A stretch of 63,873 nucleotides of DNA, filler included. It is 10 parts of 10 records of this genome, joined end to end, with 100 filler letters (N's around TTAATTAATTAA, not from the genome) between each part and the next. Parts side by side here need not be neighbours in the genome. Positions count along the whole stretch, not along the records: positions 45,622 to 49,740 come from SRR20825010_4684; 9 more parts are not named here. One strand, 5' to 3'. Of this stretch, positions 45,622 to 53,991 are shown one piece after another. How positions within the stretch are numbered: position 1 is the first letter of the stretch; each line of letters opens with the position of its first letter. The position numbers and the translations under genes were made by a program. The notes below the pieces were generated by a model. The model searched no databases. It had not been told where the DNA came from and saw nothing but the letters and a program-made list of their open reading frames with translations.

Positions 45622-45925
45622 CAACAATGTCGGCCTGATGGAAGACCGCGCGACCTTGCGGATTTCCAGCCAGCATATCGCCAACTGGCTGCATCACGGC
45701 GTCTGCGATGCGGCCCAGGTCGAGGAGACCATGAAGCGCATGGCCAAGGTGGTGGACGGCCAGAATGCCGACGATCCCGCCTATACGCCGATGGCCCCTG
45801 ACTTCGACAAGAGCATCGCCTTCCAGGCCGCCTGCGATCTGGTCTTCAAGGGCCGCGAGCAGCCGAGCGGCTATACCGAGCCGGTGCTGCACGGCCGCCG
45901 TCAGGAAGCGAAGGCCCAGGGTTAA
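45622..45925 (+). CDS. glcB: Malate synthase G, 3' end
   Basis: [22 protein letters not shown]...[11 protein letters not shown]. Confidence 0.95.
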
Positions 45926-45952
45926 GAGCGACCACGGTTAAACACATCCGGA

Positions 45953-45984
45953 AAAGAGACTGGCGATTATTCGCCGGTCTCTTT
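45953..45984. terminator. Intrinsic terminator after glcB
   Basis: AAAGAGAC(T)GGCGA-tta-TTCGCC(G)GTCTCTTT. Confidence 0.7.
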
Positions 45985-46099
45985 GTCTATGTGGGCAGTG
46001 CCGTGTCAGGCCTGGCTTGAAAGCAGGCTGAGCGGGCATTCTCCCAAGAGGGAAAGAGGCTACGGGCACATCACCCGGATCACGGCGAAGATCCGTGAA

Positions 46100-46309
46100 C
46101 TAGTCTTCGTCCGTCGGTGGCCGCAAACCGAGATCCATGACCTGTTTCCGGGCTTCCTCGTCCTCAACGCCGCCCATGGCGGACAGCAGCATTGCGGCGG
46201 CGACGATCCCTTCCATATGCGCTTTCAGGGGTGACAGCCCGCGCTCGAAGGATTCTTCAACCGTCTCAAGATAGGCATCTTCGATCATACTTCTGGTGCT
46301 ATCGTCCAC
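46100..46309 (-). CDS. Small hypothetical protein
   Basis: 69-aa acidic helical ORF, GTG start with AGAGGG RBS. Confidence 0.6.
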   Translation of the reverse strand: MDDSTRSMIEDAYLETVEESFERGLSPLKAHMEGIVAAAMLLSAMGGVEDEEARKQVMDLGLRPPTDED

Positions 46310-46681
46310 GACGCCCTCTATCTGGAACGAGTTCCCTTAAGGCCTATTGCCTCACGGCCCGCAATGCAATGCGCTTGCCCCGGGAAAATAATCACTTTTT
46401 GAAAACGGCATTTATGAATTTCCGGCATGGGGCTGCCGCAAGAAAGCCATAAGAAACCGTCCCCCGTAAGGCCTGCAGTCTGACCGCTCATTTTTCGTGT
46501 CCGAGACATCAATTCCGGCACACTTATTTCGGATTTCTTCGAAACCACCGGGCCACGGCCGCCTGCTGACAAGTGATCACAAATCCTTGATGGCGCGTTT
46601 GAATGCGCATCCTGCCCCCAATCTGGCTTTAGGTTGCGCTCGACGCAGGCGTGAACAGCGTAAAAATGGGAATGTGGGTTA

Positions 46682-47752
46682 ATGGATGTGACTGAGCTGA
46701 TCGCCGGCTGCGGCCTGGACAGGGAAAAGGTCGAGGCGCTACCGGGAGTATGGAAAGGCCACGTCGCGCAGGAACTGAATGGCGCCCTGAAAGCGGCCTA
46801 CAGATTCTGTAAATCCTATGATGGTTTAACCGGGTTTCTCTGGGGCCAGGACGAAGCGACATGGGTTGCGAATCAGAAAGCCCGGTGGGAAGCGGTCTTC
46901 AACACGGGGATCGGCCCAGCACAGGTCGATCAGGTCCGGGAGTACGCCCGGGGCGACCTTGAAAGCGCCATGAACCCGGCGGTCTACGGACAATTCTTTG
47001 CCTGCCTCGGCCGCGAATTGACAGCCCGTGTTCTCGCGGCCGGAAATGGCTCGCCGGAATCGCACGAGGCCGCGCTCCTGATCGGCACTCTGATGAACGC
47101 CGAAGCAACCATCGCCTCCTCCGCCTACAGCGAGGCGCAGACGGAAAAGAACCAGTCCACCATCGAAGAGCTTACCGGCATGATGGGCCAGAATGTCGGC
47201 GACATTATCGGCGGAGTGGCCGGTGCCTCCGACAAGCTCTCCTCCAGCATGGCCACGATCAGCCAGAATGTCGGCCGCAACCTTGAGCTCGCGACCGGCA
47301 TTTCCGGTACCGTGGATTCAGCCGTCTCCAAACTGTCCGAGCTGTCCGCCGCCATCGACGGCATCCTGAAGCTGCTCAATGGCATCAAGTCGATTGCCGG
47401 CCAGACCAACATGCTGGCGCTGAACGCAACCATCGAAGCCGCCCGCGCGGGTGAAGCCGGTCTAGGCTTTGCCGTCGTCGCCCGGGAGGTCAAGATGCTC
47501 GCCACGGACAGCCGGGAGGCCGCCGACGGCATCGCGGAAATGACCAACCGGCTGAGCGACACGCTCGGCATGGTCCAGACCGGGTTCGCGGAGATTACCG
47601 AGCGGGTGTCGACCATGGTGCGCTCCATCGAGGAAAACGGCGCCGCAGCCGAGGAGCAACACCGGGCAACCGGCGAGATCGCGGAACGCATGGCCCGGCT
47701 AGGACAGGAAATCGACGACTCGATCACGGGTATCCGCCAGCATTACGGCTGA
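46682..47752 (+). CDS. Cytoplasmic methyl-accepting chemotaxis protein with a globin-like N-terminal sensor
   Basis: IAGQTNMLALNATIEAARAGEAGLGFAVVAREVK signalling tip; no TM helices; N-terminus follows the HemAT/protoglobin pattern. Confidence 0.85.
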   Translation: MDVTELIAGCGLDREKVEALPGVWKGHVAQELNGALKAAYRFCKSYDGLTGFLWGQDEATWVANQKARWEAVFNTGIGPAQVDQVREYARGDLESAMNPAVYGQFFACLGRELTARVLAAGNGSPESHEAALLIGTLMNAEATIASSAYSEAQTEKNQSTIEELTGMMGQNVGDIIGGVAGASDKLSSSMATISQNVGRNLELATGISGTVDSAVSKLSELSAAIDGILKLLNGIKSIAGQTNMLALNATIEAARAGEAGLGFAVVAREVKMLATDSREAADGIAEMTNRLSDTLGMVQTGFAEITERVSTMVRSIEENGAAAEEQHRATGEIAERMARLGQEIDDSITGIRQHYG

Positions 47753-47780
47753 CGGACGGCAAACAGGGGAGAGCAAGCGG

Positions 47781-48017
47781 ATGATTGAGGTTCCAGCCGT
47801 CGAAACAGCTCAGGGCATTTTCGCCGCCGCCAGCTATTACGGCTATATCGGCATCGCGGTGGCGGCTTTCTTCCTGCTCTACGGGATCGACCGGATCGAT
47901 CCAAGCACGCGCGGCAGCTACCTCTTCCGGCTGTTCCTGATCCCGGCGGCGGTGGTATTCTGGCCGGTCATCCTGTGGCGCTGGGCGAGCATCGCACGCG
48001 CGGGAGCGAAGCCATGA
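47781..48017 (+). CDS. Small 2-TM hypothetical protein
   Basis: GGGAGAG RBS; Y..IG..VA.FF...GI.RIDP...FRL.LIP....FWP..LWRW. Confidence 0.75.
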   Translation: MIEVPAVETAQGIFAAASYYGYIGIAVAAFFLLYGIDRIDPSTRGSYLFRLFLIPAAVVFWPVILWRWASIARAGAKP

Positions 48018-48160
48018 AGCGCCGCCATCAACGCTGGCACCTGCGGATCTGGATCGCGCTCGCCATCCTGTTGCCCACCTTCCTGCTGGTCACTGTGCTG
48101 CAACGCCAGGAGCGCCCGATCGAGCCGCCGCTGCAGCTCGGCAAGGGAGCGGCGCAATGA
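48014..48160 (+). CDS. Small single-TM hypothetical protein (48 aa)
   Basis: MKRRHQRWHLRIWIALAILLPTFLLV...; ATGA overlaps on both sides. Confidence 0.7.
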   Translation: MKRRHQRWHLRIWIALAILLPTFLLVTVLQRQERPIEPPLQLGKGAAQ

Positions 48161-49212
48161 GCGTGCAGTACCGCCCCGTCACCTGGACCCGGAACAAAGT
48201 CGTCTACGACATCGTGCTCGGGTTCGGCATCGCCGCCTTCATCATCCTGTTCCTGCGCTATGCGCCGGGCTGGCTGGAAAGCCCCCGGATCAGCGGGCCG
48301 CAACTCCGCATGCGGGCCTTCGGTACCTGCGCCTTCCTGCTGCTGACCATCCTTCTCAGCATCGGCCCGCTGGCCCGGCTGGACAGCCGCTTCCTGCCGC
48401 TGCTCTATAACCGCCGGCATTTCGGCGTCGCCATCTTCTTCGTCGCCCTGGCGCACGCGCTTGCCGTGACCGGCTGGTATCAGGCCTTCGGTCCGATCGA
48501 CCGCTATGTCGCCCTGCTGGCATCGAGCACCGCCGTCACGTCCTGGCAGGCCTTTCCGTTCGAGTACCTCGGTATCGTCGCCCTCGGCATCCTGTTCACC
48601 CTGGCCGCGACCAGCCATGATTTTTGGTTGAACTTCCTCGGCGCCCCGTTCTGGAAGGCCATCCATATGTCGGTTTACGCGGCCTATGCCGCGATCATCG
48701 GCCATATCGCGCTGGGCGTGCTGCAAGCGGAGCATTCCCCCTGGCTGCTCGGCCTGACTGGCATCAGCGTGCTTCTGGTCTGCGGTCTGCACATCGCGGC
48801 GGGACTGCGCGAGCGGGATATAGCGGACGCGGAACCTGCCGGTGAGGCAGACGGAAACTGGGTCCACGCCAGCTATATCGAAGATCTGCCGGACGAGGGC
48901 GGCGTCACGGTCTTCCTGCCGACCGGAGAGAAAGCCGCCCTCTTCCGCTATGACGGCAAGGTATCCGCACTCTCCAACGCTTGCGCGCACCAGAACGGAC
49001 CGCTGGCCGAAGGCCGGATCATCGACGGTTGCGTCACCTGCCCCTGGCACGGCTACCAGTACCGGCCGGAGGATGGCTGCTCGCCCGCGCCCTTCACCGA
49101 AAAGGTGGCGACCTACCGGCTGCGCCGGATCGGGGACCGCATCCTGATCGACGCGAACGCACTGCCGCCGGGCACACCGGTGCCGCCCATCCAGCTGGAG
49201 CAGAGCGCATGA
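48157..49212 (+). CDS. MsrQ/ferric reductase-like transmembrane domain fused to a Rieske [2Fe-2S] ferredoxin
   Basis: RRHFG, ALAH, LAATS, WKAIH..VY.......H haem-ligand pattern; C-terminal CAH-X16-CPWH. Confidence 0.88.
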   Translation: MSVQYRPVTWTRNKVVYDIVLGFGIAAFIILFLRYAPGWLESPRISGPQLRMRAFGTCAFLLLTILLSIGPLARLDSRFLPLLYNRRHFGVAIFFVALAHALAVTGWYQAFGPIDRYVALLASSTAVTSWQAFPFEYLGIVALGILFTLAATSHDFWLNFLGAPFWKAIHMSVYAAYAAIIGHIALGVLQAEHSPWLLGLTGISVLLVCGLHIAAGLRERDIADAEPAGEADGNWVHASYIEDLPDEGGVTVFLPTGEKAALFRYDGKVSALSNACAHQNGPLAEGRIIDGCVTCPWHGYQYRPEDGCSPAPFTEKVATYRLRRIGDRILIDANALPPGTPVPPIQLEQSA

Positions 49213-49740
49213 GCACACCCTCCAGAGACTTCTTCGTCGGCTATCTGAAGACCCCGCCGAAGCTCGCGGTCTTCATCGCCGTCGTCACCGTGCTGCTGGC
49301 CGGCCTCGGCATCGGTGGCGGCTTCGCCCTGCTGGCGGGACAGCCGGATTATGGCGATGGCGGTTTCAAGGGGGGCTACCAGGAACATCTCGGCGTGCTG
49401 CAGGCGGCGCCCTACCCCATGCTGCGGCTACCGCCGGACGAAGCACATCCCGACGGCCGAACCATCCTGCTCTCCAACCCTGGCAAGCGTGGTGCACAGA
49501 ACCGTGCGGCAAAGCATGATGGCCAGATCGTCGATGTCGGCGGAGTCTTCATCACCCGCGAGGGGACGCGCATTCTCCAAGTCGGCGGCGCCGCGAAGAT
49601 CCGTGATGCGGAAGACCCGGCGCCGGTCGCCGGGTTCGTGCCTCCTGCGGACGTGCCGCTCGGCCCGGTGACACTGCGCGGGGAGATCGTCGATACGAAA
49701 TGCTATCTCGGCGCCATGCGCCCCGGCGAAGGCAAGGTGC
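49209..49740 (+). CDS. Membrane-anchored hypothetical protein (3' truncated)
   Basis: DFFVGY, single TM, then a soluble domain ending VTLRGEIVDTKCYLGAMRPGEGKV; ATGA overlap. Confidence 0.75.
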
Positions 49741-49840: not shown

Positions 49841-50596
49841 GGTGTCGACGATGATCTTGCGACCGGTCAGGCCGCAGTCGCCCACAGGGCCGCCGATCAC
49901 GAACTTGCCAGTCGGGTTGATGTGGAACTGGGTATCCTTGTGCAGCAACTCCGCCGGCAGAGCGTGCTTGACGATCAGTTCCATGACGGCTTCTTTCAGA
50001 TCTGCCTGGGAAACGTCTTCGTCGTGCTGGGTGGACAGAACAATGGCGTCGATGCCGGTGACCTTGCCGTTTTCATAGCGGCAGGTGACCTGGCTTTTCG
50101 CATCGGGGCGCAGCCATGGCAGCAAGCCGCTCTTGCGGGCTTCTGCCTGGCGTTGTACCAGACGGTGAGAGAAAGTGATTGGGGCCGGCATCAGCACGTC
50201 GGTTTCGTTGCTGGCGTAGCCGAACATCAGGCCCTGGTCGCCGGCGCCCTGGTCTTCCGGCTTCTGGCGGTCAACACCCTGGGCAATGTCCACGGACTGC
50301 TTGCCGATGATGTTGATAATGCCGCAGGTGTCACCGTCGTAGCCCACGGTAGAGGAGGTGTAGCCGATGTCCTTGATCACGCCGCGCACCAGATCTTCCA
50401 GATCCACCCAGGCGCTGGTCGTGATTTCACCACCGACGATAGCGACCCCGGTCTTTACCATGGTTTCGCACGCAACCCGGGCATGGGGGTCGTCGACCAG
50501 AATGGCGTCGAGGACGGCATCGGAAATCTGGTCAGCCAGTTTGTCAGGGTGGCCTTCAGAGACCGATTCGGAAGTAAAGACGCTGTAATCAGACAT
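49841..50596 (-). CDS. metK: S-adenosylmethionine synthetase (3' truncated)
   Basis: [45 protein letters not shown]. Confidence 0.97.
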
Positions 50597-50706
50597 AGGG
50601 TTGTTCCTCTGTGAGCGTTGCAAATTCGGGCCGGCAATGGATTTTTGAGTGGGGCCGGCAGTTTTGATGTTGGTATCGTAAATCAGTTTTCTGAGTCTGC
50701 ATATTT

Positions 50707-50743: not shown

Positions 50744-51745
50744 CTATGTGGACTCTGCGGTTTTCCAGAATTCTCTCACTTGCACCTGGAAGCCGTTTCT
50801 CAGCCCGATGAACAGCGACTCACCCGCAGCCAGGCCTGCATCGGTGGCCCAACTGGTAAGCTCTTCCGGTTCAAAGCCCAGCCACAGATCGCCGCAGGCT
50901 TCCTTCGCCCAATCCTGGTCATGGCTGCACAGATCACTGACAAACAGGCAGCCACCGGTGTTCATCAGTGCCGAGGCATCCAGAAAAATGTCCGCGGGGC
51001 TGGGTACGTGATGCAGGACCATGTTGGCCACCACCAGATCAAAATCGTCACCACGAGCCAAAAGGTTGTCGGTGACACCTTCAATCAGATCGACATTGTT
51101 CAGACGTTCTTCGATGCAGGTACGGGTGGCCTTGGCCAGCATGTCGCGGGAGTTATCCAGTGCCACCACGTGCCTGCAGATCTTCGAGAGCACCGGCAGA
51201 AATGCGCCTTCACCGGGGCCGATTTCCAGGGCCGTTTTCCAGTCATGACGCTCGGAACGATTACGAATCAGGTTCGCCACCGGTTCGGCGTAGAGGTCAA
51301 ACGCGGCAATGAGTTCCTGTTGCTCCCGGAATTTTTCGGCGTAACGGGAGAAGAAGGCCTGGGACTGGTCTGCGCGCTGATTGCGGATGGCTTCGATCTT
51401 TTCCTGCAGATGCTCAGGCAGCGGAATACGGTCCACGCTCCGGAAAACCTGGCGGATGGTCTGGTCCGTCAGCTTGTCGCTTTCGAGGTTCAGGGGGCGC
51501 CGGTAGAAAATGGCATTGCCTTCCCGCTGGGGTTCCAGCAGTCCTGCCTTGTGCATCACCTTCAGATGATGGCTCATGCCCGACTGGCGCATCTCGAAGA
51601 GCTGGCTCAGCTCCAGTACACCGAAGGTGTCCCGACGCAACACCCGCAGAATCTCCAGGCGTAACGGGTCACCGCTCGCTTTGAAGATCGGTGCCAGGGC
51701 GTCCACGGAGGACAGGTCAGTTGCAGGTGTGGTCATGGATGTCAT
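50744..51745 (-). CDS. sahR: ArsR-HTH/SAM-methyltransferase-fold regulator (SahR)
   Basis: FKASGDPLRLEIL..ELS...QSGMSHHLK HTH plus LEIGPGEG, NMVLHH; directly upstream of metK. Confidence 0.82.
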   Translation of the reverse strand: MTSMTTPATDLSSVDALAPIFKASGDPLRLEILRVLRRDTFGVLELSQLFEMRQSGMSHHLKVMHKAGLLEPQREGNAIFYRRPLNLESDKLTDQTIRQVFRSVDRIPLPEHLQEKIEAIRNQRADQSQAFFSRYAEKFREQQELIAAFDLYAEPVANLIRNRSERHDWKTALEIGPGEGAFLPVLSKICRHVVALDNSRDMLAKATRTCIEERLNNVDLIEGVTDNLLARGDDFDLVVANMVLHHVPSPADIFLDASALMNTGGCLFVSDLCSHDQDWAKEACGDLWLGFEPEELTSWATDAGLAAGESLFIGLRNGFQVQVREFWKTAEST

Positions 51746-51783
51746 GGGAAAGAAGTGTAGGCATGTCTTTCCGGGCAATCAAC

Positions 51784-51990: not shown

Positions 51991-53990
<2,000 letters not shown>

Positions 53991-53991
<1 letters not shown>

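Follow-up and report, generated by a model that had tools for sequence, protein, structure and literature searches.

A conserved gene cassette encoding a probable membrane electron-export module with a Rieske-fused FRD protein

Transmembrane electron export by ferric-reductase-domain (FRD) proteins in bacteria is understood in essentially one case, MsrPQ, apart from NOX-like enzymes. E. coli MsrQ (YedZ) is described in PMC12525009 as a membrane flavocytochrome that carries one haem b and FMN and is reduced by a separate flavin reductase, Fre. Rieske is among the domains listed by Zhang et al. 2013 (PLoS One 8:e58126, PMC3591440) as fused to bacterial FRD 'short forms' (model M4), where it is classed as an electron-transfer agent. 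The initial annotation of the locus described here knew of no characterised system with such an architecture; the system is indeed uncharacterised, but the combination of FRD and Rieske domains itself is already in the list of Zhang et al. Among the papers searched, none on the cassette was found. We report that the locus belongs to a gene cassette that probably forms a conserved membrane electron-export module, composed of a 3-TM protein, g3, g4 and g5.

The window, i.e. the whole stretch of DNA that was analysed (63,873 nucleotides), was put together from ten pieces, with a 100-base spacer (N runs around TTAATTAATTAA) between each piece and the next. The cassette is on the piece at 45622-49740 (4119 bp, 63.2% GC), where four ORFs follow one another on the plus strand: g1 (47781-48017; 78 aa), g2 (48014-48160; 48 aa counted from the ATG at 48014), g3 (48157-49212; 351 aa; an FRD membrane part fused to a Rieske domain) and g4 (49209-49740; 177 residues to the contig end, of about 253). 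These ORFs, and the ATGA overlaps at 48014, 48157 and 49209 by which the initial annotation had chained the four genes, were read directly in the window sequence. The longest g2 ORF has a GTG start at 47975; the homologues start at MKR.H. A hydropathy scan gave 2, 1, 6 and 1 TM segments for g1 to g4, in agreement with the topology first assigned. Across loci, neighbouring cassette genes share 1 or 4 bases. When the cassette of a 93%-identical relative was scanned for promoters and terminators, nothing exceeded shuffled sequence.

Relatives of g3 were present in at least 586 of 600 pattern-matched stretches of GTDB species genomes, and the 80 best loci were analysed. tblastn matches to g1 and g4 were found in 79 and 77 of these loci, respectively, which indicates linkage beyond chance; where a match was absent, the gap falls at contig ends. 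Among 151 sampled genomes of the class, g3 was present in 5, and full-length g4 was found in the same 5, always adjacent (Fisher p 1.6e-9, a value that is not corrected for relatedness and ignores shared ancestry). Co-occurrence of the partner genes with the fusion, on which the initial reading of the locus depended, was thus observed in both samples. The four genes first grouped as the cassette are linked, but the group was incomplete: a fifth gene, g5, which encodes a 2-TM protein, follows g4 in 73 of 78 loci. g3 relatives formed at least 8000 clusters (90% identity) at E <= 1e-20, and g4 relatives formed at least 2104 clusters at E <= 1e-5. Relatives occur in records labelled from several phyla, and the cassette is common in marine Alphaproteobacteria. 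The annotation of g3 and g4 relatives was generic only.

g1 carries the conserved motif GIDRID..ARG.Y.FR.LLIP......WP..LWRW. g1 and g2 are a single fused gene in 56 of 79 loci and separate genes in 20. g1 is therefore the N-terminal two thirds, and g2 the C-terminal third, of one 3-TM protein, which is encoded by a single gene in most relatives and is split in the window lineage. This replaces the earlier view of two small accessory subunits. The N-terminus of g2 is basic (MKRRHQRWH), but the HxxxH pattern that had been pointed out there is not conserved in the fused forms, several of which have no second His. No Pfam family matched g1, g2 or g4 at E <= 0.1, and no Pfam or NCBIfam family matched g1 over its cut-off.

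Residues 56-180 of g3 matched Pfam Ferric_reduct (PF01794; E 2.4e-11, 44.2 bits vs a cut-off of 28). Pfam, alignment and the structural model (pLDDT 85.8) together define a membrane part of MsrQ/STEAP type with six helices (residues 1-225). The modelled membrane fold aligned with STEAP1 (Z 16.3, rmsd 4.3 Å, 196 residues), STEAP4 (Z 16.2, 203 residues) and the NOX5 TM domain (Z 15.4). When g3 was used as query in a PDB sequence search, only Rieske domains were matched, and no FRD chain was found at E <= 1. Identity to E. coli MsrQ was 26% across the membrane part. R86, R87, H100, T152, S153, W166, H170, Y174 and H183 were invariant in all 54 g3 sequences and aligned with MsrQ R77, R78, H91, T134, S135, W147, H151, Y155 and H164; the MsrQ-like signature recognised at first is thus matched by invariant residues, the haem-ligand His residues included. 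H88, H154, D155 and H212 were also invariant. In PMC12525009, the MsrQ counterparts of the shared residues are described as forming the haem and FMN sites. Based on alignment with MsrQ H91/H164, H100 (helix 3) and H183 (helix 5) are the predicted ligands of an outer haem, and R86, R87, S153, W166 and H170 match MsrQ FMN-site residues and are predicted to form an inner site. The canonical inner-haem His position of NOX, on helix 3 and 14 residues before the outer His, is taken in g3 by the invariant Arg86, and MsrQ (R77) and STEAP are likewise described with Arg at this position (PMC12525009). Because Arg86 replaces the canonical His, a single haem with a flavin-type site and a pair of haems are equally likely. 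His88, two residues past Arg86, could from its position serve as inner-haem ligand instead. Of the 'haems' proposed in the initial annotation, the outer one therefore retains an invariant His pair, whereas the second is not secured.

The Rieske domain follows the six helices. Residues 234-320 matched Pfam Rieske (PF00355; E 8.1e-16, 58.2 bits vs a cut-off of 20.3), so both halves of the proposed fusion score above the cut-offs of their families; beyond the membrane part, Pfam gave Rieske families only and no FAD/NADPH dehydrogenase domain. Together with fold matches of residues 233-339, Pfam delimits a [2Fe-2S] domain of ferredoxin type at residues 234-335. The cluster motif is C276-A-H278, 16 residues, C295-P-W-H298, and the ligands C276, H278, C295 and H298 were invariant in 54 of 54 sequences. 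The domain aligned with dioxygenase ferredoxins by fold (target-normalised TM-score 0.82-0.88, rmsd 1.8-2.3 Å, Z 14.1-15.3) and with PDB ferredoxins by sequence (E 1.8e-10 to 2.5e-9), and is closest to the low-potential dioxygenase-ferredoxin type. In NOX, the domain C-terminal to helix 6 is cytoplasmic; the Rieske domain of g3 is placed in the cytoplasm by homology.

The window copy of g4 (last letters before the contig end, ...GEIVDTKCYLGAMRPGEGKV) ends inside a Cys/Met/His site, just past the first Cys and Met. Full-length g4 was recovered from the relative mentioned above, in which the cassette DNA is 93% identical and the g3 protein 91% identical. It has 253 aa in this relative and 257 aa in L009. 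The exported Cys-containing domain foreseen in the initial annotation is thus available in full, and the Cys and His residues of its second barrel are conserved. In the model of g4 (pLDDT 92.7), a TM helix (residues 19-46) is followed by two OB barrels, so that g4 is modelled as an N-in membrane anchor with a periplasmic part of two OB folds. In an alignment of 56 sequences, the second barrel shows the site ..GE.xDxKC..G.M.PG.G..H..CA..C; C169, M174, P176 and G177 are invariant, and H182, C185 and C189 are conserved in at least 90%. Twin CxxxC motifs are present in most g4 proteins, although in the window lineage the first Cys is missing. The cysteines may do no more than form structural disulfides. 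Fold searches with g4 returned generic OB folds only (SSB, RPA, PriB, NlpE C-domain, potempins) at Z <= 7.4, a level rated common by the fold-search tool; neither a cofactor-bearing relative nor a thioredoxin fold was found. CcmE, CusF and similar proteins were missing from these lists, which is not evidence against them. ESM Atlas look-alikes were labelled 'hypothetical' or 'DUF5666' only. An Fe-S cluster in g4 was considered and rejected: the N-termini of g4 (consensus ..PFFVGYL..P..LR.FL) and the leaders of its stand-alone homologue have no RR motif, and this absence of a Tat (twin-arginine) signal argues against such a cluster.

The stand-alone homologue was found with the g4 profile, whose matches were small secreted proteins that bear Sec-type leaders and share the invariant C, M, H and CxxxC with g4. 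Comparison of g4 with this family by hhalign gave 97.3% (E 1.7e-11) over 91 columns, in which the motif is aligned. The gene for a 172-aa secreted protein (unk172) comes next in 22 of 22 loci, with SCO1/SenC after it in 17 of 22. Of the 5 g3-positive genomes, 4 carry a member of the family, the close relative of the window among them. No Pfam or NCBIfam family matched the stand-alone protein; the ESM Atlas gave PF19135 (DUF5818) at 0.87. Its two longer forms are both apparent run-togethers with the next gene and contain no known domain. The possibility that g4 is a fusion of both proteins of the Sco string was rejected because hhalign of g4 with the 172-aa protein gave 1.7%, i.e. no relation.

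A Sco-linked homologue of the Cys/Met/His domain suggests copper handling by g4. The link comes from a paralogue of one g4 domain, not from g4 itself, and a scan of the 73 nearest cassette neighbours gave no match to a Sco, PCuAC, CopC/D or cupredoxin family. The Sco link also fits thiol chemistry, because a role as thiol-disulfide oxidoreductases has been discussed for Sco proteins too. Our preferred but tentative reading is that g4 binds copper; the module would then reduce Cu(II) or otherwise handle copper on the periplasmic side, as a bacterial equivalent of STEAP. In a fuller version, which we put forward with equal reserve, a Rieske-fed MsrQ-type flavocytochrome would reduce Cu(II) on g4, and the Cu(I) would enter the Sco pathway, by which cytochrome oxidases and further cuproenzymes mature; the stand-alone homologue would be a new class of periplasmic copper chaperone, and Rieske-tagged flavoenzymes would be the donors in many marine Alphaproteobacteria.

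Past g4, the 93%-identical relative has a 91-aa 2-TM gene and then PPK2. The initial annotation had g4 in place of MsrP, with the contig end close by; no msrP or oxygenase gene was found in the 19-kb stretch of this relative or among the 73 nearest neighbours in other loci, which agrees with that proposal. Two soluble flavoenzymes with Rieske domains recur beside the cassette. Within 6 kb, a Rieske-TPP enzyme, whose best NCBIfam match is pyruvate oxidase, was present in 33 of the 80 best loci and a Rieske-GltS-like enzyme in 31; 35 loci had at least one of the two and 29 had both. Five genomes without this adjacency had orthologues of the GltS-like enzyme (5/5) and the TPP enzyme (4/5). Among the 151 genomes, each enzyme was present in 3 of 5 that have g3, and in 3 (GltS-like) and 4 (TPP) of 146 that do not. 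The electron donors in many lineages are thus probably these pyruvate-oxidase-like (TPP) and glutamate-synthase-FMN-domain-like enzymes. No orthologue of either was found in the close relative G136 or in G074; the window lineage appears to lack both, so that neither can be its donor. A Na+/H+ exchanger was near the cassette in 18 of the 80 best loci, and other recurrent neighbours were lineage-specific.

From this gene content, conservation, fold assignment and residue conservation, we infer, as the mechanism that is most likely, a one-way electron-export wire. A cytoplasmic donor would reduce the Rieske cluster of g3, and the electron would pass to the inner site of g3, occupied either by a flavin as in MsrQ and STEAP or by a second haem on His88/His170. 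It would then move to the outer haem b (His100/His183) and to the g4 site on the outer side of the same membrane; a contact between g3 and g4 is suggested by their linkage. g5 would be the 2-TM component of the full cassette, located beyond the contig end in the window. Inward electron flow was considered and rejected by analogy: in MsrQ, STEAP and NOX, electrons enter from the cytosol and leave at the outer face, and a Rieske domain of this ferredoxin type would have a low potential.

The substrate of the module would be copper in the tentative reading given above, and other acceptors have to be weighed against it. The haem domain might instead reduce a disulfide of g4 (C169 with C185 or C189) and so supply thiol reductant; we consider this rather unlikely, and equally so the extension in which g4 keeps Sco or other periplasmic CxxxC proteins reduced independently of DsbD/TlpA. 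Three to four conserved Cys on two adjacent helices of the second OB domain would suit such chemistry, as would the gene string shared by the stand-alone homologue and SCO1/SenC, whose CxxxC needs reduction before copper binding. However, a disulfide switch leaves the invariant Met174 and the near-invariant (at least 90%) His182 unexplained, g4 has no thioredoxin fold, and we know of no precedent for one-electron transfer from haem to a disulfide. This alternative lies near the 'thiol chemistry' mentioned in the initial annotation. The outer haem could also reduce O2 to periplasmic superoxide, as in NOX, with g4, g5 and g1/g2 having structural or regulatory roles only. The FRD fold is common to NOX5, NOX2, DUOX1 and SpNOX (Z 11.0-15.4 with g3), and marine Alphaproteobacteria, in which the cassette is common, are reported as producers of extracellular superoxide. 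We nevertheless regard this as improbable: the residue pattern of g3 is of MsrQ/STEAP type with Arg at the inner-haem position, and the strict co-inheritance of g4, whose invariant site resembles a ligand set, speaks for an acceptor bound to a protein.

Reduction of Fe(III) or other metal chelates at the outer face, with g4 presenting the metal, would be in keeping with the Pfam family of g3 (Ferric_reduct) and with its STEAP and Fre relatives, which reduce Fe(III). It is about as improbable in our view, since Cys/Met-rich sites such as that of g4 prefer soft metals, e.g. Cu(I), over iron; no iron-uptake genes recur beside the cassette, and Sco is the only conserved partner of the homologous OB domain. 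Least probable is an arrangement of MsrPQ type, in which g4 would be a mere docking adaptor for a molybdoenzyme or other soluble periplasmic enzyme encoded elsewhere. Every cofactor-site residue of MsrQ is kept in g3; however, g3 scored only 32.4 bits against the NCBIfam MsrQ equivalog NF003831 (cut-off 130), and the 73 nearest neighbours contained no match to the molybdoenzyme family Oxidored_molyb. In the close relative, the 19 kb covered contained no molybdoenzyme, and none of the neighbour clusters present in at least 19 loci belonged to a molybdoenzyme family (Pfam on one representative each). The sole neighbour clusters in more than 15 loci were Rieske-GltS-like, Rieske-TPP, Na/H exchanger and ABC-ATPase-like (one representative each).

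Like MsrQ, g3 has a six-helix FRD fold, and all haem-site and FMN-site residues of MsrQ align with invariant residues of g3. Both presumably pass electrons outward to a protein partner in the periplasm. g3 differs in its C-terminal Rieske domain, whereas MsrQ is described as reduced by Fre, and in the additional invariant H88, H154, D155 and H212. No MsrP gene lies near the cassette, in which the partner would be the membrane-anchored tandem-OB protein g4, together with 2-3 small membrane proteins. STEAP1-4, eukaryotic ferri/cupri-reductases with one haem b and FAD, are the best structural matches of the g3 membrane domain, although their sequences are too dissimilar for a PDB match at E <= 1; they share with g3 the Arg at the NOX inner-haem ligand position, as far as described in the MsrQ source. 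STEAP reduces metal at the outer face, which for the cassette is our proposal. STEAP2-4 are fed by an N-terminal F420-type NADPH oxidoreductase domain, a Pfam family that g3 does not have, and in STEAP the haem face itself binds the metal, with no OB-fold subunit devoted to this task. The Rieske domain of g3 shares fold and cluster ligands with the NDO ferredoxin, BphA3/BphF, T4moC and CarAc and, like dioxygenase ferredoxins, has no bc1-type extra disulfide Cys beside the ligands. Unlike those ferredoxins it is tethered to a membrane haem domain, and unlike dioxygenase systems the cassette encodes no oxygenase or ferredoxin reductase. The account of model M4 in Zhang et al. (PMC3591440) gives its architecture, with no neighbourhood, partners, cofactor analysis or function.

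The Sco-linked secreted protein has the invariant Cys, Met, His and CxxxC of the second OB domain of g4. It differs in being soluble, about 120 residues long and made of one OB domain behind a Sec-type leader, and it is encoded with Sco and not with an FRD protein, whereas g4 sits between g3 and g5. If the copper reading holds, a new copper-chaperone family would stand beside Sco; if the module is a STEAP-like cupric reductase, the Rieske-tagged flavoenzymes would tie copper reduction to central metabolism. If the copper reading fails, the cassette still offers a compact system for studying how a Rieske centre feeds electrons into a membrane flavin or haem, what three Rieske-tagged enzymes do jointly, and what a Cys/Met/His OB domain binds. 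A 2020 review (PMC7558416) lists just one specific cupric reductase for bacteria, CcoG (FixG). According to this review, CcoG is encoded in the ccoGHIS cluster beside cbb3 oxidase genes and uses two [4Fe-4S] clusters to reduce Cu(II); the review treats it in the context of cytosolic Cu(II) reduction. Compared with CcoG by description, the cassette, if it acts on copper, would likewise reduce Cu(II) by a membrane protein via an iron-sulfur centre, and would be a specific periplasm-facing cupric reductase, of which that review lists none for bacteria. Beside MsrPQ, the cassette would represent a second, widespread FRD design, in which the iron-sulfur input is built in and the protein partner belongs to no known family.

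The genes at 47781-49740 almost certainly form a real, conserved and uncharacterised membrane redox cassette. The window is made up of ten pieces of 3.2-17.3 kb each (GC 50.5-64.9%), separated by spacers of 100 bases (N runs around TTAATTAATTAA); adjacency in the window implies neither adjacency in the genome nor origin from a single organism. The cassette lies on the piece at 45622-49740 (4119 bp, GC 63.2%), all of whose genes are on the + strand. ORF calls and Pfam place a malate synthase G gene, of which just the 3′ end is included, ahead of a second gene at 46682-47752. The latter encodes a soluble protein of 356 aa in which no TM segment was called; an MCP signalling domain (Pfam E 1.7e-28) lies at its C-terminus, and its N-terminal half had no family. 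After a gap of 28 bases, ORF calls and a hydropathy scan revealed g1 (47781-48017; 78 aa, 2 TM), g2 (48014-48160; 48 aa, 1 TM), g3 (48157-49212; 351 aa, 6 TM plus a soluble domain) and g4 (49209 to the contig end; 177 readable residues, 1 TM), with ATGA overlaps between successive genes. Pfam analysis of g3 showed Ferric_reduct at residues 56-180 (44.2 bits; cut-off 28) and Rieske at residues 234-320 (58.2 bits; cut-off 20.3), and matched no family in g1, g2 or g4. The initial annotation, which described four ATGA-coupled genes with a fusion of a ferric-reductase domain (FRD) and a Rieske domain as the third, was borne out as written by the ORFs, overlaps, hydropathy and Pfam matches. An NCBIfam scan gave sub-threshold matches only (MsrQ equivalog, 32.4 bits vs. 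130; MamZ, 29.1 vs. 650), and the Rieske ferredoxin models also scored under cut-off. The next piece carries a truncated gene at 49841-50623 (- strand), which we take to encode S-adenosylmethionine synthetase, and two ORFs read by eye: one of 344 aa whose N-terminus resembles ArsR and whose C-terminus resembles a methyltransferase (50744-51778, - strand), and one resembling transketolase (51991-53991, + strand). The genes of this piece look like ordinary housekeeping genes.

The window copy is incomplete, with g4 cut and a fifth gene (g5) missing, as a result of assembly and not of gene decay. In a related sampled genome, G136, g3 is 91% identical to that of the window, the DNA is 93% identical across 2041 aligned bases, and the order malate synthase G, MCP protein, g1, g2, g3 is the same. 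G136 has a complete g4 of 253 aa (tail ...GEGKVHRACANLCLMGG...), and its g5 (91 aa) shares a one-base overlap with the g4 stop. Genes for PPK2, a thiolase, two acyl-CoA dehydrogenases and two HAD hydrolases follow. An msrP or oxygenase gene just past the contig end would have told against the initial annotation, and the G136 continuation after g4 contained none. The pairing of the MCP gene with g1 was repeated in this 93%-identical relative (L082, 7171-8274) and was absent from other lineages; the MCP gene and the cassette may be co-transcribed in the window lineage. Some further neighbours of the cassette were lineage-specific (L015, 6760-7311, +; L051, 7769-9583, +; L035, 6439-7626, -; L047, 1128-2456, +). 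Their products are a DM13 'electron transfer' domain protein, an aminolipid-type acyltransferase/GNAT fusion and patatin-like phospholipases, none of them widely recurrent.

When GTDB was scanned with one genome for each species, at least 586 g3 relatives appeared among 600 pattern-matched stretches, and the best 80 of these (46-60% identity) were taken with their flanks. They came mostly from Alphaproteobacteria (Roseibium, Rhodobacterales, Rhodospirillales, Parvibaculaceae), with a few from records labelled Cellvibrionaceae, Solibacteraceae, Phycisphaeraceae or Planktophila. Searches with tblastn detected g1 in 79 of these 80 loci and g4 in 77, the four misses being loci truncated at contig ends. 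Only 33/80 loci gave a match to g2, because the g1 ORF mostly continues to the g3 start (56/79 loci; split as in the window in 20/79, other arrangement in 3/79). Thus, g1 and g2 constitute a single 3-TM protein that is split in the window lineage. The HxxxH of g2, to which the initial annotation drew attention, is missing from several fused g1-g2 forms. The cassette has a fifth gene, g5. An ORF of 61-99 aa starts between -4 and +26 bases from the g4 stop in 73/78 loci, and all except one of these ORFs are predicted to have two TM segments. Among 151 genomes sampled at class level, five carried g3, and full-length g4 occurred in exactly the same five, adjacent every time (Fisher's p 1.6e-9, uncorrected for relatedness). 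The expected co-occurrence of the fusion with its partner genes was thus evident both in the best loci and in the genome sample. Among named g3 relatives in the protein collection, the closest belong to Nisaea species (91% and 83%), and the names of g3 relatives are all generic ('Rieske 2Fe-2S domain-containing protein' or 'ferric reductase-like transmembrane domain-containing protein').

An AlphaFold model of g3, built from a 54-sequence alignment (pLDDT 85.8, pTM 0.78), comprises six long helices and a C-terminal domain rich in beta structure. When the model was searched against ~48,000 PDB representatives, the membrane part matched STEAP1 (Z 16.3, rmsd 4.3 Å, 196 residues), STEAP4 (Z 16.2), the NOX5 membrane domain (Z 15.4), and NOX2, DUOX1 and SpNOX (Z 11.0-13.9). 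The C-terminal domain, with Rieske ligands C276, H278, C295 and H298, resembled Rieske ferredoxins from dioxygenase systems (Z 14.1-15.3, rmsd ~2 Å). Unlike bc1-type Rieske proteins, it has no extra cysteines; together with the ferredoxin match and what is known of the family, this points to a low-potential, ferredoxin-like centre. Since six helices precede the Rieske domain, as in NOX, the domain should by homology be cytoplasmic.

E. coli MsrQ (K-12 record), the membrane flavocytochrome partner of the periplasmic molybdoenzyme MsrP, was aligned with ten g3 membrane parts. MsrQ R77, R78, H91, T134, S135, W147, H151, Y155 and H164 correspond to g3 R86, R87, H100, T152, S153, W166, H170, Y174 and H183, all nine of which are invariant in the 54-sequence alignment. 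The MsrQ-like signature with haem-ligand histidines reported in the initial annotation was therefore upheld, H100 and H183 being the counterparts of MsrQ H91 and H164. In a 2025 study of MsrQ (PMC12525009), the single MsrQ haem is held by H91 and H164, and the FMN pocket is lined by R77, R78, S135, W147 and H151. In the same study, R77 occupies the site of the inner-haem-ligating histidine of NOX/DUOX, so that MsrQ and the STEAPs carry one haem plus a flavin. By this inner-site residue diagnostic, g3 is predicted to be of the MsrQ/STEAP type. Helices 3, 4 and 6 carry four further invariant residues at their cytoplasmic ends, H88, H154, D155 and H212; the position of H88 is Leu in MsrQ. One possibility is that His88 and His170 form a pair on a second haem; another is that the four residues form a contact to the Rieske centre.

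In an alignment of 56 g4 sequences (numbered after a relative's locus, L009), K97, G156, G162, E163, D166, K168, C169, G172, M174, P176 and G177 are invariant, and C165, H182, C185 and C189 are kept in at least 90%. As C165 is absent from the lineage of the window and from a few others, C169, M174, H182 and C185-x3-C189 make up the core. The g4 model (pLDDT 92.7, pTM 0.84) consists of a TM helix (19-46) and two OB-type barrels (62-137 and 153-249), with the motif on two short helices (167-171 and 179-191) that form an insertion within the second barrel. PDB searches with g4 returned generic OB folds only (Z ≤ 7.4). The charge distribution around the anchor would place the barrels in the periplasm. 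No twin-arginine signal was found in g4, which argues against an exported Fe-S cluster. Relatives of g4 fall into at least 2104 clusters; among the best 120, every source name was 'hypothetical protein' and only one had PF19135.

Short ORFs in other genomes gave a weaker match to the g4 profile, confined to its second OB domain. These encode stand-alone secreted OB proteins (OBs; ~140-180 aa as called, including Sec-type leaders) with the invariant pattern GE.IDxWC...(I/F)M....G.AHH.CA.WCA.GG.P. Profile-profile comparison of g4 and OBs gave 97.3% probability (E 1.7e-11, 91 columns), with the Cys, Met, His and CxxxC in register. The family occurs in 21/401 sampled genomes. In 22/22 fetched loci, OBs is followed on the same strand by a gene for a Cys-containing secreted protein of 172 aa (unk172), and in 17/22 the gene after that is SCO1/SenC (five examples scanned, Pfam E 1e-43 to 1e-50), as at L085, 2994-4526 (- strand); the string was also found at L083 and L086-L104. 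Apart from unk172 and SCO1/SenC, no conserved gene was observed around OBs in the 22 loci, and neither OBs nor unk172 has a family in Pfam or NCBIfam. Sco proteins act in the periplasm as copper chaperones and thiol-disulfide proteins in the maturation of cytochrome oxidases. In the first sample, that of 151 genomes, OBs was present in 4/5 g3-positive genomes, including G136 (locus L083), vs. 5/146 others (p 3e-5, uncorrected for relatedness).

Two soluble flavoenzymes, each with an N-terminal Rieske domain, recur beside the cassette. The Rieske-TPP enzyme (~660 aa) has three TPP-enzyme domains and pyruvate oxidase as top NCBIfam match (E 1.7e-116, under cut-off); the Rieske-GltS-like enzyme (~540 aa) has a glutamate synthase FMN domain. 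Examples are found at L004, 1984-5599 (+ strand), and at L018, 4020-5624 and 8087-10069. Of the best 80 loci, 35 have at least one of the two within 6 kb of the cassette (33 the TPP enzyme, 31 the GltS-like enzyme), and 29 have both. A gene for a Na+/H+ exchanger lies within the same distance in 18 of these loci, upstream of the Rieske-GltS-like gene (L006, 668-1924, and 17 others). The flavoenzymes are 67-88% identical across orders, a conservation exceeding that of g3. Five genomes lacking the adjacency had the GltS-like orthologue in 5/5 (69-72% identity including the Rieske part) and the TPP orthologue in 4/5. In the 151-genome sample, the GltS-like enzyme occurred in six genomes, three with g3 and three without (p 3e-4), and the TPP enzyme in seven, three with g3 and four without (p 6e-4); neither value is corrected for relatedness. 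G136 and another genome, G074, have the cassette and lack both flavoenzymes. The tie is strong, not obligatory, and the flavoenzymes are candidate donors only. In one complete chromosome (G001, contig C1, 190-254 kb), four elements lie inside ~60 kb: the Sco string at ~193.7 kb, the Rieske-TPP gene at 208.7 kb, the Rieske-GltS-like gene at 212.2 kb and the cassette at 252.1-253.9 kb.

Electrons are probably exported from the cytoplasmic Rieske centre through g3 to g4. The Sco-linked homologue, a paralogue of one g4 domain, and the STEAP-like membrane domain together suggest a copper site in g4, with the cassette as a periplasm-facing cupric reductase; the link is indirect, and copper is a tentative candidate for the end point. 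In the part of a 2020 review available to us (PMC7558416), CcoG is the only specific bacterial cupric reductase and haem-FRD cupric reductases are described as eukaryotic. Thiol chemistry fits the Sco-linked homologue nearly as well as copper, and we regard thiol supply as a rather improbable end point. We surveyed the ORFs called nearest to the cassette, one to either side, in other loci (150 ORFs); leaving out known flavoenzyme genes, g5-type ORFs and most ORFs shorter than ~130 residues, 73 were scanned against Pfam. They were heterogeneous and included no molybdoenzyme, oxygenase or copper gene. O2, iron or a remote enzyme partner would each be a very unlikely destination for electrons exported by the cassette.

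Full-text literature searches, mostly outside subscription journals, returned no description of the cassette, g4, the Sco-linked OB family or unk172; in the part of Zhang et al. 2013 available to us, the FRD-Rieske architecture is only listed. The cassette belongs to FRD-based transmembrane electron transfer. It differs from MsrPQ in that g3 scores below the MsrQ equivalog cut-off and carries a fused Rieske domain, and in having a partner other than MsrP, which it lacks. Its mode of working is closest to those of MsrPQ and STEAP, and it is a member of neither.
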